Assembly (NCBI GenBank): GCA_965240465.1
Contig: OZ251219.1
Span: forward strand, 1,535,139-1,599,138
DNA: 64,000 nucleotides
DNA from: a bacterium
GTDB taxonomy: Bacteria; SAR324; JACQKK01
Direction: 5' to 3'
Below, in pieces: positions 39,001 through 48,000 of the stretch. Made by a program: the position numbers. Within the stretch, counting starts at the first letter, position 1. Every line of letters starts with the position of its first letter.

Positions 39001-42000
39001 GAAGCTGGCCCAACAGGTGTGTAAGCAATTGCTATCATAGAGTTTGATGTTGAAAAAATATTTGAATAAATATTTGAAGAACAGGAGCAAAATGCTACTG
39101 CCAGCCCATATGAAAAACTTATCGTGTGTTTTGTGTCTGGTCTTGGTTTGGGGAGTTAGCTCAGCTTGGGGAGCATCTGGCTTGGCTTGGGGAGCAGAGG
39201 TATCCCACGAGGGAGGTAATCCGTGGTTGCCCTTGCTCTGGAAGAGCATCAATCTATCCATACTGATATTGATCGCCTATTTGGTTGCCCGAAAGCCTCT
39301 GGGTTCTTTGTTGCGTGGAGCGGCTCAGTCCGAGGGCGAGTCGTATGAGGCCATCCGTCAATCTGCTACCGATGCCAAAGCTAATTTTGAGTCTCAGCAG
39401 CAGAAGTTGGCGTCCATGCAAGCCGACCTAAACACTCGCACCGCAGAGCTCAAGCAGGCACTGATCGCCGAGCAGGAGAAAATATCCTCCCAAGCGAAAG
39501 GACGTGCTAAACGCCTGAGGCAACAATTTAGGCAGCAAGCCCACCAAGAAATAGAACAAGCCCTCGCAAAATGGAAACAAAATCTCGCAGAAGAAACCAT
39601 CCGATTAGCTAAAGAAAAACTAAGTCTTAACTCTGCTCAGCAAGAAACACTGGCCCTAAGGTTCATTACCCAACTGAATCAGAGCCACCAAAACAACATC
39701 GGAAAAAACTCATGAGTACTGCTGTTATCACCAAGCGTTATGCCCTAGCTCTGTTCCAGATCGCCCAAAAACAGGGACAGATAGAAAAAACCTCCCAAGC
39801 ACTCCAAGCACTTTCCCGAGCGGTGAACAACTCTCCCCCTTTACAGAAAACCTTGACTAATCCCGCCACCAAAGTCACTACCCGAATACTACTACAACTA
39901 CTGAAACTCCTGAAAGCACCCCGTACACTCGCCAATCTGCCCCAAACACTCGCCAAAAAACAACGCCTAAACCTACTAAAACCACTGGCAAACACCTTTG
40001 ATAGCATCGCCGATGAAAACGCTAATCGCTTGCAAGCTGTCGTTCATTCCGTGGAACCGCTCCATCCAAAACTACAGCAAACCCTAAAACAAAAACTGGA
40101 ACTCATGCTAAATAAAAAAATACTCCTCACTAACAAAATAAATCCCCAACTGCTAGGAGGCCTAACCATCTCCATAGGAAGTCGTGTCTGGGACGGTAGC
40201 CTTAAACGTAAATTGCAATCCCTGCAGGAAAACTTTAGCAAAACCGAGACATCATAACTGGGACATAGTAATAGTAACTGAGACATCGTAACTGGGACAT
40301 CGTAACTGGGACATCGTAACTGAGACATCGTAACTGGGACATCGTAACTGAGACATCGTAACTGAGACATCGTAACTGGGACATCGTAACTGAGACATCG
40401 TAACTGGGACATAGTAATAGTAACTGAGACATCGTAACTGGGACATCGTAACTGACATATCGTAACTGGGACATCGTAACTGGGACATAGTAACTGACAT
40501 ATCGTAACTGGGACATAGTAACTGACATATCGTAACTGACATATCGTAACTGACATATCGTAACTGACCCATCGTAACTGACCCATCGTAACTGACCGCA
40601 ACCCACATCCATAATAGAGTACTAATGCCTACCTCTCAAAAACTGCGTGCTGAAGAGATCAGCTCCATATTGCAAAAAGAACTCGCCAACTTTGATAACC
40701 AGACCCAAATTGAAGAAGTAGGAACCATCATCACCGTGGGAGATGGTATCGCTCGGGTACACGGGCTAGACAACGTACAGATGGGAGAGTTGCTAAGTTT
40801 TCCCAATCAGCTAACGGGGATTGTCCTTAATCTGGAAGAAGACAATGTAGGGGTGGTGCTGATGGGCGAACAACAGCAACTCAGGGAGGGAGACCAAGTC
40901 CGCCGTACCGAGCAAATAGCCTCAGTTCCCGTAGGGCCAGACTTCTTAGGCAGGGTCGTTGACCCCTTGGGAGAACCCATAGATGGTAAAGGGCCTATTA
41001 AATCAACCGAAAAGCGATTGATGGACATCGTAGCCCCCGGGATTATCAGCCGACAGCCCGTCCACGAGCCCTTGCAAACTGGCATCAAGGCGATTGACAG
41101 CATGATACCAATCGGCCGCGGGCAGCGTGAGCTCATCATTGGCGACCGCCAAACAGGCAAAACTGCCATCACCATTGACACCATCATCAATCAACGCGAC
41201 CAAGGAGTTATCTGCATATATGTCGCCATCGGACAAAAAAACTCCAATGTAGTCAACGTGGTACAACAACTCGAAGAAGCCGATGCCATGAAAAACACCA
41301 TCGTAGTTTCCGCTTCTGCTGCCGACCCCGCCCCGTTACAGTACATCGCTCCGATGGCTGGCTGTAGCATCGGTGAATACTTTATGCACCAAGGAAAGCA
41401 CGTCCTATGCATCTATGATGACCTCTCCAAGCAAGCGGTAGCCTATCGCCAGCTGTCCCTATTATTGCGCCGCCCCCCAGGTAGAGAAGCCTACCCCGGC
41501 GATGTCTTCTACCTCCATAGTCGGCTACTCGAACGGGCCGCCAAGCTAAACAAAGAACACGGCGGCGGCTCCTTAACTGCTCTCCCCATCATTGAAACTC
41601 AAGCTGGTGACATCTCCGCCTACATCCCCACTAATGTTATATCCATTACCGATGGGCAAATCTTCCTCAGCTCAGACCTCTTCAATGCTGGGTTGAGACC
41701 AGCTGTTAATGTGGGTCTATCAGTCTCCAGAGTAGGTGGCGCGGCTCAAGTTAAGGCCATGAAAAAAATCGCTGGCACTTTGCGTTTGGAACTCGCTCAA
41801 TACCGTGAAAAAGCTGCTTTTGCTCAGTTCGGTAGCGACCTTGATAAAGCCACCCAAGCCCAACTCGCCCGCGGTGAACGCTTGACCGAACTGCTTAAAC
41901 AAGACCAATATCGCCCCCTGAAAGTGACCGACCAAATCCTCTCCATCTTTGCAGGAACTCGCGGCGGACTGGATGATATTCCAGTGAGCTCGGTGAAAAA

Positions 42001-45000: not shown

Positions 45001-48000
45001 CGTATAGACAGATTGCTTGAGGATCAAGTGATGGGATTGGTACGAAAGGTAGTATAACAATGGATGCCAAAAATCAGGTTGAAGAAGTTTTTGTTGCTGC
45101 GAACTACTTTATCAAAAAAGCAAAGAGTGTCAGCATTATGAAGCTAATTAAGTTAGCTTATATTTCTCATGGGTGGCACTTGGCTATCTATGATAGACCC
45201 TTATTTTTTAATCGTATAGAGGCATGGCAGTATGGCCCCGTCATACCAGATTTGTACTACGCTTCAAAATACCATGGTAATGGAAGGATGCTAGATAATG
45301 TGTTCTGCGATTATGAATTGCCAAATGATAATACAACTGAGTTCTTGGAGACATGCTACAAGTACTATGGTGGTCTGTCTCCCCTTGCCCTTTCAAGTCT
45401 TACTCACAAAGAAGGAACACCGTGGGAAGATGTTTATAAAGAGGGAGAGCGAGGAACAGAGATATCCAATGAAGTAATAAAAAAGTATTATAAAAATCGT
45501 ATGAAATAAAATGAGTGATGAAAACAAAAATAAAGCAGAAGGGGGTATGGCAGAAGATGAGGAAGAAGCTTCTCCCGAAAGCTTTGCTGGTCCTAAATCA
45601 GGAAAAGAAGAAAATTACTTAGAAAAACAAATAGAGAGTAATTATGTTAGATGGCATAAAATGTTTGGGACTGTTGTTGAAAAGCTTATTGGATTATCAT
45701 TTTTTGCCATTTTATTTATTGTCATTTTGATTTTGTCGGGATTGGGTATTTGGTTTTTTCATGTGTTTACTAATTGGGGATGGCTAAAAGATGAAAAATT
45801 CAGACAATCGAAGGACTCATTTTTAATGGTTCTTTTGGGTCATTACTAACAATTGCTATTGGAAGAACACTTAAAAATTATATGGGACAACATATACAAC
45901 CCAAACATTAAAGCAGCGTTGTCTACCCTGCTGCTACTGCTCTTGATTTGTGCCTTTTTTGTATAGTCAGCTTATAAATCCTCCCTCTAAAAATGCTTGA
46001 AAAAATATGAAATAAGGCTACATTGAAGGGTGTGAAGCAATGGCTCTAGCTTGTTAGCTGGAAAAAAGAAGTTGAGTAAATTAGAAACAAGGCAAGCAAA
46101 TTAGCTGAGAATTAGCTGGAAAATAGCTGGAAAATAGCTGGAAAATAGCTGAAAGAGGGCATGTGAATTATCAGGGTGGTATTACAGTAAAGGCAGTACT
46201 AGTAAAGGCATATGAGTAAAGGCAGTACTAATATAGGCAGTGCTAAAGGGAAAGTATTACAAGTGTTGGGTCCAGTGGTGGACATCGCTTTTGAAGAAAA
46301 TCAGCTGCCACCGATACTGAATGCGGTCAAGATAGAAAAACGAGCGGGTGATTTGCCCCTAATTTGCGAAGTTCAACAGCATTTAGGTCAGAACACCGTC
46401 CGTACCGTCGCCATGGCAGGCACAGACGGCTTGGCACGCGGCATGAACGCGGTTGATACTGGAAAACCCATCTTGGTTCCTGTAGGCAATGCAGTACTGG
46501 GAAGAATTCTCAATGTGACTGGCGATCCTGTAGATGAACAAGGTCCGGTAAATGCCAAGCTTCATCGCCCGATTCATACTCCGCCACCCAAATATGATGA
46601 ACTAGAAGCTGGCTCTAGCATGTTCGTGACTGGCATCAAGGTGATTGACCTGCTGTGTCCCTACGCTCGCGGAGGGAAGATTGGGCTATTTGGCGGGGCT
46701 GGAGTAGGTAAAACAGTTATCATTCAGGAACTGATCCGCAACATCGCTTCCGAGCACGGTGGGTACTCAGTGTTCGCAGGAGTGGGAGAACGCACCCGAG
46801 AAGGTAATGACCTCTACCTAGAAATGAAGCAATCTGGCGTGCTGAATAAAACCGCCCTCATCTACGGGCAAATGAATGAATCGCCAGGAGCAAGAGCCCG
46901 AGTAGCCCTCACCGCCCTCACCGTGGCAGAACACTTTCGCGATACCGCTAATACCGATGTCCTAATGTTCATTGATAATATATTCCGCTTCACCCAAGCT
47001 GGATCCGAAGTCTCTGCCCTGCTAGGACGAATTCCGTCCGCAGTGGGTTATCAGCCCACCCTAGCTACCGAAATGGGATTGCTGCAAGAACGAATCACCA
47101 CCACTAAAAAAGGTGCTATCACCTCCGTGCAAGCAGTGTACGTACCTGCTGATGACCTCACCGATCCCGCCCCAGCTACTACCTTCTCTCACCTTGATGC
47201 CACTACCGTACTCTCGCGTCAAATCTCCGAACTCGGTATTTATCCTGCCGTAGACCCGCTCGATTCCACCTCTCGCATTCTTGACCCCCGCATCCTAGGT
47301 GATGAACACTTCCAAACCGCTCGCGCAGTCCAGACCATCTTGCAGCGATACAAGGAGCTACAGGACATCATCGCCATTCTGGGCTTGGATGAACTTTCTG
47401 AGGAAGATCGCAACATCGTTGAGCGAGCTCGTAAAATCCAGCGATTTCTCTCTCAGCCCTTCCATGTAGCCGAAGATTTTACTGGACGCCATGGCGTGTT
47501 CGTGGACATCAAAGATACCGTGCGTTCCTTCCAAGAAATCCTTAACGGGCAGCATGATGACCTACCCGAGCAAGCCTTCTACATGGTCGGAACCATAGAA
47601 GATGCCGTCAAACAGGCAGACCTGTAGACCCCCCCCCCATTACACCCCCCCCTAAAAAACCATCTAGGTGCCAGCTCATCAGCTCATAGACCTCTTGAGA
47701 AAAGGGGGGCGTCTACTGAGAATGAATGACCTGAATGATGTCGGTAGCGGCCGCTTGTTTGGCAGGGAGATAAGCTCCTAAGATGCTGGCTATCATAACT
47801 GCCAGAGCCACCCCGAGGCAATCTTGCCAAAGGAGCAAAATGGGGACTTGGTCGCTACCAGGATAAATCCCTGGGGGCAGCTTGAGGGAAGTTAATCTAC
47901 TGAAAGACCCGCAAATCGCTAGCCCAACGCCCATGCCCAATATCAAGCCACTACTGCCTATCAGCAAACCTTGAAAGATGAAGGCTCGCTGTATCTTTTG

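Follow-up and report, generated by a model that had tools for sequence, protein, structure and literature searches.

The sole F1Fo ATP-synthase operon of this bacterium probably carries two horizontally acquired cassettes, a decayed type II restriction-modification (R-M) system and a PanA-PanT pair, lodged in two spacers in the same direction as the operon. The window, the whole stretch of 64,000 nt that we analysed, contains six atp genes (atpF', atpF, atpH, atpA, atpG and atpD), all intact. Pfam matches agree with the order given in a preliminary description of this DNA, namely atpA, N6_N4_Mtase, ORF, atpG, SocA_Panacea, ORF and atpD on the + strand. The atpF'-atpF-atpH genes form the upstream part of the same operon and are collinear in the 13 relatives whose loci include them, and atpC and atpB occupy separate chromosomal sites, at contig positions 1166462 (as stated before for atpC) and 1500858, respectively. 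The alpha and beta subunit genes are single copies in this reduced genome (1.6 Mb). AtpA is 81% identical to AtpA of G001, and the nearest named homologues of AtpD are labelled SAR324 or Lambdaproteobacteria. An array of the 14-nt unit GTAACTGAGACATC takes up the atpH-atpA spacer, which measures 367 nt here compared with -4 to 110 nt in 12 of 13 relatives. Two further tandem-repeat arrays lie within 46098-46245 (11 nt x 4.9 and 15 nt x 4.1), the latter extending into atpD and forming its first codons.

Table 1. Features of the ATP-synthase locus and its two inserts (window coordinates).
Feature	Coordinates	Strand	Evidence or remark
atpF'	38561-39040	+	ATP-synt_B/OSCP Pfam matches across atpF'-atpF-atpH
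atpF	39044-39715	+	ATP-synt_B/OSCP Pfam matches across atpF'-atpF-atpH
atpH	39712-40257	+	ATP-synt_B/OSCP Pfam matches across atpF'-atpF-atpH
14-nt tandem repeat, 22.6 copies	40274-40595		Tandem Repeats Finder and sequence
atpA (F1 alpha)	40625-42151	+	PF00006, 4.8e-85
Insert 1	42138-43871	+	1734 nt, delimited by the insert-free allele in run X2
Beta-class amino-methyltransferase, 310 aa, apparently intact	42159-43091	+	PF01555, 4e-25
189-aa ORF as called	43036-43605	+	Ends at TGA 43603-43605
Type II restriction endonuclease (PD-(D/E)XK), 238 codons, interrupted	43105-43821	+	PADLOC REase_II PDLC03414
atpG (F1 gamma)	43872-44747	+	PF00231, 1e-81
Insert 2 region	44763-46229	+	Contigs of the minor haplotype leave the reference after 44762 and rejoin at 46230
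PanA, Panacea-domain antitoxin, 149 aa	45060-45509	+	PF13274, 5.1e-16
PanT-like candidate toxin, 112 aa	45511-45849	+	Pairing with PanA, hydropathy
atpD (F1 beta), last gene of the cluster	46212-47627	+	PF00006, 8e-72

Both inserts are absent from the atp loci of all 14 relatives fetched, including G001, G008, G009, G004 and G019, the five in which atpA-atpG-atpD had already been described as contiguous. The atpA-atpG spacer spans 1720 nt here compared with 1-250 nt in these relatives (14/14), and the atpG-atpD spacer 1464 nt compared with -4 to 417 nt (14/14). The foreign look earlier ascribed to the inserts was borne out by their GC3 of 0.26-0.37 (methyltransferase 0.286, 189-aa ORF 0.258, Panacea 0.367, 112-aa ORF 0.265), as against 0.45-0.53 in the atp genes (atpA 0.534, atpG 0.517, atpD 0.504). 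Sliding GC drops to 0.30-0.39 across both inserts.

Insert 1 is delimited by an insert-free allele, a 105-nt contig of run X2 in which 45 other letters, matching neither side, take the place of the 1734 nt (joint 42137->43872). Judged by this allele, the last 14 nt of atpA (42138-42151; the end of a Gln codon and 'IKN-stop') are inserted or replaced DNA, and the right end of the insert directly adjoins the atpG ATG. In run X2 the insert-free bypass has a depth of 19.6 and the contig with the insert one of 37.8, together close to the flank depth of about 58 (58.5 and 57.9), so that roughly one third of the population in this one run lacks the insert. The insertion is therefore recent and polymorphic, not fixed in the source population, at a frequency made uncertain by run X1 of the same sample, in which no insert-free allele was seen. 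The claim that the inserts belong to this species only holds for the loci of the 14 relatives, but it has to be qualified, since insert 1 is polymorphic and G008, of a sister genus, has its own decayed, different methyltransferase insert in the atpH-atpA spacer, which is independent of insert 1.

The methyltransferase gene of insert 1, starting 7 nt after the atpA stop, scores 89.5 bits against PF01555 (cut-off 26.7) and matches PADLOC MTase_II (PDLC03299, 2.3e-28). In its translation the catalytic motif DPPY precedes the SAM-binding motif FGHSGTT, and its closest solved relatives are M.RsrI (4.9e-12) and M.MboIIA (1.2e-9); the enzyme may be active. The 189-aa ORF behind it had been reported as lacking a family match and overlapping the methyltransferase gene, and neither statement survives. 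Its homologues (3177, mostly 238-240 aa) begin at the equivalent of GTG 43105, 14 nt past the methyltransferase stop, and the overlap is an effect of ORF calling. From this GTG the frame passes one TGA, at codon 167, and runs to a TAA at 43819-43821; we looked for an uninterrupted frame and found none. Read past the TGA, the 238-codon frame matches the PADLOC REase_II profile with an E-value of 1.9e-71 over positions 29-243 of 244, which gives the restriction enzyme a footing beyond the positional argument of the preliminary description. The Pfam PDDEXK_3 score (20.1 bits) is under the cut-off of 22, and a search among solved structures found no sequence relative. The model of a homologue (P0003; pLDDT 80.5) is PD-(D/E)XK-like, with NhoI, Eco15I-N, DpnI and PvuII as best fold matches (probability 1.0, TM only 0.38/0.55 to NhoI). 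The D...(D/E)xK motif is present: the homologue alignment is invariant at D135, D139, E145 and K147 (P0001 numbering), which the P0003 model places on strands 113-127.

The TGA falls in core strand 164-171 of the P0003 model, at a position that is Trp in 9/9 aligned homologues and TGG in the G008 copy, and the contigs of the two runs all agree on the TGA. The endonuclease is now cut short within its core sheet by a single TGG->TGA change. Among 80 metagenome loci with homologues, 79 hold a near-full-length match; an in-frame stop occurs in 2 of these and in the one shorter match (L113), and this rarity marks the break here as an exception. With the endonuclease cut, the methyltransferase would now be an orphan without post-segregational killing, in keeping with a population that holds alleles both with and without the insert. 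The nonsense codon at an invariant Trp makes it most likely that the pair, as read from its sequence, consists of an orphan methyltransferase and a dead nuclease and is no longer addictive. Of the earlier picture of selfish gene pairs in the operon, the foreign pairs of R-M and toxin-antitoxin kind stand, but the selfishness of the former is probably lost.

Insert 2 is likely a toxin-antitoxin pair by analogy with known systems. PanA scores 60 bits against PF13274 (cut-off 25.7) over profile positions 1-112 of 113 and is one of five copies in this genome (G000). The 112-aa ORF begins 1 nt after the panA stop; behind an acidic disordered N-terminus its product has a long hydrophobic helix at residues ~51-89 and then a short helix near the C-terminus. 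Its AF2 model has helices at 30-86 and 95-108 (pLDDT 67). As noted earlier for family matches, it has none in Pfam, NCBIfam or PADLOC (Atlas scores <=0.79), and searches of 5.8 billion and 1.8 billion proteins returned no homologue outside this genome. It is weakly similar to the partner of one PanA paralogue (blastp 5.5e-5) and only 15-28% identical to the paralogues' partners. Behind each of the five PanA genes of the genome, at -50 to +6 nt, lies a small ORF whose product has a charged N-terminus and, in 4/5, strong hydrophobic segments; an analogous partner ORF is present at 3/6 PanA loci of relatives. The minor haplotype carries different cargo at atpG|atpD. The toxin, previously proposed from position only, is still a candidate, yet a better founded one, because of the 5/5 paralogous pairings and because validated membrane PanT toxins have a similar architecture. 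The 112-aa protein may thus be toxic and neutralised by PanA.

The endonuclease family is present in 2/64 genomes of the order, and G008 holds a decayed copy of the methyltransferase-endonuclease (M-R) cassette between glcE and glcF, with the M-R pairing present. The M-then-R arrangement is found in 48/80 metagenome loci, and in 24/80 the partner is a ~660-aa gamma-class N6_Mtase/TaqI_C enzyme. At five metagenome loci the cassette family is intact between nuoE and nuoF, with the methyltransferase start overlapping the nuoE stop (offset -1) in 4/5. The cassette (70-87% nt identity) diverges in step with nuoE (73-89%), and at one locus (L064) the 3' end of nuoE recurs in degenerate form right behind the cassette. 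Operon invasion by such cassettes is not unique to this species.

Neither cassette contains a mobility gene, and neither insert a terminator-like site on the + strand. The longest flanking repeat (17 nt at 82% identity, of which 10 nt exact) does not exceed chance level, in agreement with the earlier observation that no target duplication lies beside the inserts. In the absence of mobility genes, flanking repeats and terminator-like sites, we infer read-through from the atp promoter. Co-transcription of the cassettes with the atp genes is further suggested by the shared strand, the 7-nt gap, the end of insert 1 at the atpG ATG and the overlap with the nuoE stop, whereas weak promoter-like + strand matches inside both inserts (42954-42983 and 45997-46024) count against it. 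We propose that two cassettes of two genes apiece, neither bearing a mobility gene, entered the atp operon spacers in sense direction. Cassette 1 (atpA|atpG) would have brought a beta-class methyltransferase of adenine type, still intact, with a PD-(D/E)XK endonuclease behind it, and cassette 2 (atpG|atpD) a type II PanA-PanT system whose small membrane-inserting toxin would be neutralised by direct binding of PanA. Transcription from the atp promoter would pass through both cassettes and on to atpG and atpD, and their orientation and missing terminators may have made the insertions tolerable. Across the genome, 39/115 low-GC3 gene clusters are co-directed with both neighbours, compared with 48.7 +/- 5.3 under random placement; there is therefore no general 'operon-seeking' tendency.

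Several other explanations were weighed against two acquired cassettes of which the first has decayed. That the restriction enzyme is still made, by read-through or recoding of the UGA, and the R-M system still working and addictive, strikes us as very improbable. Near-cognate read-through of UGA by tRNA-Trp occurs in bacteria, and it would fit a lone UGA in the place of Trp, in a frame that stays open and well conserved up to its normal stop. The truncated product retains the D...ExK residues, so that residual activity or low-level read-through is possible, and the genome has a tRNA-SeC reading UGA. However, its only tRNA-Trp has the anticodon CCA, TGA is a common stop (282/1212 long ORFs), and it is not plausible for a foreign low-GC gene to use selenocysteine where Trp is invariant. 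A very recent mutation may be all that lies behind the conserved downstream frame, and the insert-free allele that makes up about a third of run X2 is easier to understand without killing. A less remote reading, unlikely but of some weight, holds that the 112-aa ORF is a non-toxin (a membrane anchor, sensor or non-functional remnant), with PanA an orphan antitoxin remaining from a decayed module or a part of phage defence. Its lack of homologues and low identity to the paralogues' partners would fit, as would a frame that goes on past its TAA into a 37-codon ORF. Those partners have a longer second hydrophobic segment, so that the 112-aa protein could be decaying or no toxin at all, and one of the five partners (L015) is clearly truncated. 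Against this, the bicistronic layout, spacing and architecture are kept at all five loci here (5/5) as well as in G001 and G003, and published membrane PanT toxins share the architecture.

Domestication of the cassettes, with the methyltransferase and possibly the toxin-antitoxin pair selected as regulators co-expressed with ATP synthase and own promoters now driving atpG and atpD, we regard as rather doubtful. An intact methyltransferase beside a broken endonuclease would agree with it, as would an insert that supplies the end of atpA and the translation-initiation region of atpG, and the nuo loci, where the intact cassette has diverged together with nuoE. Promoter-like sites also occur upstream of atpD and inside the methyltransferase gene; but the promoter matches of the whole region (33, compared with 22.1 +/- 4.2 in shuffles) were rated chance level. 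Moreover, the two alleles of run X2 and the lack of the insert in the sister species G001 speak for a very young insertion that has had no time for domestication. Sharp GC steps at the gene borders and an uncultured source might suggest foreign low-GC DNA misjoined into the operon during assembly. We give this hardly any credence, as independent contigs of two runs span every junction with 0 differences (X1 40625-44762; X2 42108-43901 and 44733-47627), with the proviso that these runs may be the very data behind the genome assembly.

The acquisition of two cassettes by one operon raises a wider, tentative possibility, which we put forward as rather less probable than not by a good measure: that the M-R cassette family and other small promoterless conflict cassettes live as 'operon lodgers' in this R-M-rich lineage. 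It is prompted by the independent insertions here (atpA|atpG, atpG|atpD) and in G008 (atpH|atpA, glcE|glcF), by the minor-haplotype cargo, and by an intact nuoE|nuoF copy kept while the host genes diverged to ~72% nt identity. If so, such cassettes would enter, in sense orientation, the spacers of energy operons that the cell expresses strongly and cannot do without, where the host promoter would transcribe the cassette and the cassette would provide the stop/start region of the neighbouring gene. They would be hard to lose because imprecise deletion would harm the operon, and their persistence would not depend on killing.

Among known systems, insert 1 resembles type II R-M systems with a beta-class N6-adenine methyltransferase (M.RsrI, PDB 1eg2; M.MboIIA, PDB 1g60) in its PF01555 domain, beta order of motifs and a same-strand PD-(D/E)XK endonuclease of ~238 aa after the methyltransferase, but differs in the nonsense codon and in having only remote fold matches to solved enzymes. 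Insert 2 shares with PanA-PanT (Kurata et al, 2022, PMC8832971) a Panacea antitoxin beside a small protein with a charged N-terminus and C-terminal TM helices. According to that paper, toxins T3 and T12, which are built in this way, depolarise and permeabilise the membrane. The 112-aa partner matches these membrane PanTs by architecture alone and lies outside recognised toxin families; lacking a match to known proteins, it has no assignable place among the published PanT clusters. SocA, of the type VI SocA-SocB system, is the founding Panacea-domain antitoxin; its equivalog model NF047745 aligns to PanA residues 12-147 at 72.5 bits, far under the cut-off of 190, and the PanA locus has no SocB-like partner. 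A literature search of limited depth found no published R-M insertion in an ATP-synthase operon. R-M complexes are known to insert into operon-like gene clusters, according to a review from the Kobayashi group (PMC2993543), and insertion with long target duplication leaves direct repeats >30 bp that are single at the empty site (Furuta et al, 2010, PMC2853133). The latter route was rejected here, given repeats at chance level and an empty allele with 45 unrelated letters. As in the cases presented in the two papers, a bare pair without transposase or integrase and with GC below that of the host sits between the genes of one operon, present in one genome and lacking in a close relative. Cassettes of these kinds are thus already known to enter operons, and the present one is a recent case in an ATP-synthase operon.

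The ATP-synthase operon of the genome under study (G000) is interrupted twice, by insert 1 (a methyltransferase and a REase between atpA and atpG) and by insert 2 (a Panacea-domain antitoxin, PanA, and a 112-aa ORF between atpG and atpD). Sliding GC fell from ~0.50 to 0.30–0.39 across both inserts, and GC3 was 0.26–0.37 for the inserted genes (methyltransferase 0.286, 189-aa ORF ~0.26, PanA 0.367, 112-aa ORF 0.265) against 0.445–0.534 for the six atp genes, in agreement with the preliminary description, which had also placed atpC away from the cluster; it lies at contig position 1166462, and atpB at 1500858. 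G000 is a single 1.6 Mb contig on which tblastn with AtpA and AtpD found no copies beyond these two genes, so the operon encodes the cell's only rotary ATPase. The closest named AtpD homologues were labeled Candidatus Lambdaproteobacteria, "Deltaproteobacteria bacterium" or SAR324 cluster. The six genes were mapped in the atp loci retrieved from 14 relatives. The atpA–atpG spacer measured 1–250 nt in all 14, versus 1720 nt in G000, and the atpG–atpD spacer −4 to 417 nt, versus 1464 nt, bearing out the adjacency of atpA, atpG and atpD first reported for relatives. Matches to atpA and atpD lay on one contig in 22 of 30 relatives, 0.9–1.4 kb apart by arithmetic on the printed coordinates, versus 4.06 kb in G000; the remaining eight had them on separate contigs or had one gene alone. 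No + strand terminator-like site was found within insert 1 or insert 2. The presence of the inserts is thus confirmed, and their interpretation as selfish pairs is partly supported.

Features of the atp cluster of G000 (window positions) and related loci in other genomes
Feature	Location	Strand	Remarks
Tandem-repeat arrays at atp cluster	40274-40595; 36652-36794; 38492-38568; 46098-46151; 46186-46245		
Low-GC island	36963-38400		directly upstream of atpF'; third island by atp cluster
96-aa low-complexity ORF	37539-37829		in island upstream of atpF'
139-aa two-TM ORF	37836-38255		in island upstream of atpF'; sub-threshold NCBIfam SLATT_1, E 0.0023
atpF'	38561-39040	+	ATP-synthase cluster, then atpF, atpH
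atpA	40625-42151	+	
N6_N4 methyltransferase	42159-43091	+	insert 1
ORF as originally called (189-aa ORF)	43036-43605	+	insert 1
atpG	43872-44747	+	
Panacea-domain protein (PanA)	45060-45509	+	insert 2
112-aa ORF	45511-45849	+	insert 2
atpD	46212-47627	+	
Repeat-filled spacers, G001 (same genus)	L014		atpA-atpG and atpG-atpD
Decayed cassette, G008 (sister genus)	L013 (G008:C2) 2168-3862	minus	66-68% nt identity
Frameshifted type II methyltransferase, G008	L026 (G008:C4) 4025-5667		atpH-atpA spacer; PADLOC PDLC03371, 4e-67, split over two frames

The 189-aa ORF, described at first as lacking a family match and as overlapping the methyltransferase, is neither. Its frame runs past one TGA (43603–43605) to a TAA at 43819–43821, and with the TGA read as X it matched the PADLOC profile REase_II PDLC03414 (E 1.9e-71, profile positions 29–243 of 244). 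The search returned 3177 homologous proteins, those listed being mostly 238–240 aa long and 63–71% identical. Alignment with nine of them placed a tryptophan at the TGA position in all nine and their starts at GTG 43105, so the true REase gene spans 43105–43821 and leaves the methyltransferase free. A decayed copy in G008, a member of the sister genus, carries TGG at the same codon. Recoding of TGA as tryptophan in G000 was rejected, given that the sole tRNA-Trp has the anticodon CCA and that TGA ends 282 of 1212 long ORFs. ARAGORN also located a tRNA-SeC (anticodon TCA) at contig positions 118512–118610, so the organism probably makes selenoproteins. In an AlphaFold model of the intact homologue P0003 (pLDDT 80.5), the stop site falls in the core strand 164–171. 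The best fold matches of this model, remote ones (TM 0.38/0.55), were the PD-(D/E)XK restriction enzymes NhoI, Eco15I (N-domain), DpnI and PvuII; the REase profile had no match among PDB sequences, nor did tblastn find the REase in plasmid and phage collections. The truncated protein keeps the invariant D...ExK residues but lacks several strands along with the C-terminal helices, and we infer that it is inactive. The full-length methyltransferase has DPPY preceding FGHSGTT (beta order) and M.RsrI and M.MboIIA as its nearest solved structures, which together make N6-adenine methylation its likely activity. We identify insert 1 as a type II R-M cassette with a presumably dead nuclease; it would represent a dated snapshot of R-M decay in which the nuclease is lost first and the methyltransferase remains.

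Contigs of X1 and X2, two sequencing runs of one sample, matched the region without one differing letter, the TGA included; as the assembly may itself have been built from these runs, they exclude a misjoin in part only. In X2, a 105-nt contig linked 42137 to 43872 via 45 other letters, and the depths of the insert-free (19.6) and insert (37.8) contigs summed to that of the flanks (58.5, 57.9), indicating that about one-third of the genomes in this run are without insert 1. No insert-free allele was seen in X1. The insertion is young. Read from the X2 joint, its left border precedes the atpA stop by 14 nt and its right border coincides with the atpG start codon, so insert 1 provides the C-terminal residues of AtpA, the atpA stop codon and the entire atpG leader. 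In the second spacer, low-depth contigs (7.3 and 13.7 versus ~176–216 in X1; 2 versus 52 in X2) departed from the reference after 44762 and returned at 46230, with 667 nt or more of non-reference sequence between atpG and atpD. These mark a minor haplotype in which the spacer or its cargo differs; its two 30-letter ends had no other occurrence in G000 at ≤3 mismatches. A 15-C run (44764–44778), 17 nt past the atpG stop, is where this haplotype diverges, and a second run, of 12 C (44460–44471), codes for PPPP within atpG. Homopolymers this long are slippage-prone.

The cassette of insert 1, a beta-class methyltransferase followed by a PD-(D/E)XK REase, recurs elsewhere. Its alignment with the G008 copy, which holds many stops and frameshifts, begins at the methyltransferase ATG and ends at the nuclease stop. 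Inverted or direct repeats, target duplications and terminal repeats at the insert borders occurred at chance level only, as expected from the earlier remark that no target duplication flanks the inserts. The G008 copy sits between co-directional GlcE-like FAD-binding and GlcF-like CCG/Fer4 genes, separated from them by 77 and 30 nt. The REase family was present in two of 64 genomes of the order. Among 80 metagenome REase loci, 79 gave a near-full-length match, and stops were present in two of those 79 and in L113, the one shorter match. The upstream enzyme was a G000-like methyltransferase in 48 loci and a ~660-aa N6_Mtase/TaqI_C enzyme in 24, so one nuclease family has two alternative methyltransferase partners. 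The latter, found in loci among L071–L123, is a gamma-class enzyme unrelated to the beta-class one. Cassette GC was below flank GC in all 17 metagenome cassettes flanked by 1.2 kb or more on each side. In none of the 122 nearest flanking frames, one per side, did we find transposase or integrase families at E ≤ 1e-6. Both nearest ORFs lay on the cassette strand in 9 of the 17 cassettes with both flanks, about the usual background. A genome-wide co-directional preference of low-GC cassettes was rejected (39 of 115 clusters versus 48.7 ± 5.3 at random, from rough gene calls and a lenient GC3 threshold of <0.38).

In five loci (L064, L067, L069, L079 and L098), all with both cassette genes intact, the cassette directly follows nuoE (offset −1 nt in four), and four of the five have nuoF downstream. 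Nucleotide identities among these loci were 70–87% for the cassette and 73–89% for nuoE, and the parallel divergences fit one old, vertically inherited insertion. The same cassette family has thus settled in three energy-metabolism operons (atp, glc and nuo), and in nuo it has persisted stably through long divergence.

For insert 2, PanA scored 60 bits against PF13274 and fell below the cut-off of the SocA equivalog model, and as a query for related loci in genome contigs it returned one 16-residue match and nothing else. The 112-aa ORF had no homologues by word-index search and no usable hit in the ESM Atlas (best score 0.79); in a full HMMER scan of 1.84 billion representatives, its sole other match was a 32-residue low-complexity stretch (E 1.3e-4). 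G000 encodes five PanA genes, and behind each, within −50 to +6 nt, comes a small ORF whose first 40 residues include 12–17 charged ones; four of these ORFs contain strong hydrophobic segments, and the fifth ends after 53 residues. The pairing was also found in G001 (two of three loci) and the relative G003, and was absent at L042 (G008) and L045 (G011); L044 (G005) had no PanA match. In a search of 10 sequences, the 112-aa protein resembled one paralogue's partner (E 5.5e-5, 31% over 55 residues), and its low-confidence model (pLDDT 67) comprised a disordered N-terminus, a long helix (30–86) and a short helix (95–108). Complex prediction for PanA (alignment A3) and the 112-aa protein (A4) returned no answer (score 0.00), which counts neither for nor against their pairing. 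According to a passage in Kurata et al (2022, PMC8832971), membrane PanT toxins, the partners of PanA, depolarize the membrane. Insert 2 is a PanA–PanT-like pair with the 112-aa ORF as candidate toxin, and the small membrane proteins of G000 add to the candidate PanT toxins. Beside another such pair, at L016 (contig 1331600–1337600), two paralogous ORFs (136 and 141 aa) lie in tandem at 3422–4313. A further pair, at L017 (contig 21300–28300), is accompanied by an 824-aa ORF (3898–6372) whose motifs, read by eye, suggest a fusion of an N6-methylase with a specificity protein.

R-M-type genes are unusually abundant in this lineage: PF01555 matches numbered 21 in G000 (1.6 Mb), 25 in G001 (1.7 Mb) and 26 in G008 (3.0 Mb), versus 0–9 in 18 other relatives, a load comparable to that of the most R-M-rich bacteria known. 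G000 holds 56 low-GC islands totaling 71 kb, and further ones in the window lie at 8863–10163 and 14463–16763. Synteny outside the atp cluster was not common to G000 and G001, so the island upstream of atpF' is not classable as an insertion. Tandem repeats have also lengthened the atp-cluster spacers in both genomes. The G000 arrays comprise units of 14 nt × 22.6, 12 nt × 12, 13 nt × 5.8, 11 nt × 4.9 and 15 nt × 4.1; in G001, short repeats make up the 109-nt atpA–atpG and 417-nt atpG–atpD spacers, and tblastn found none of the four inserted genes at this locus. In both genomes an array duplicates the first atpD codons, so the annotated AtpD N-terminus is partly repeat-made. The atpH–atpA spacer of G008 (1643 nt) holds a methyltransferase of another subfamily and ~750 nt of unassignable low-GC DNA; here the operon was invaded independently, in a different spacer. 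The initial view that such insertions occur in this species only therefore needs amending, both for this invasion and because insert 1 is itself polymorphic.

The coexisting empty-site allele is the most useful feature of the case, a natural before/after pair still in the population from which the cost of insertion (polarity, altered atpG/atpD expression, a new methylation motif) could be measured. The only ATP-synthase operon of a reduced genome carries two cassettes and is still intact, and bare two-gene conflict cassettes can thus reach deep into core genes. A full-text search, judged by title and abstract start, returned no relevant literature on R-M or TA modules in atp operons. At the nuo locus L064, the cassette is immediately followed by a second, degenerate copy of the 3' end of nuoE (~117 nt), an arrangement that recalls the long target duplication mode set out in a passage of Furuta et al (2010, PMC2853133). 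The atp inserts add new members to known kinds. Their position is striking, though not unprecedented, and they extend rather than overturn current views of R-M and TA mobility.
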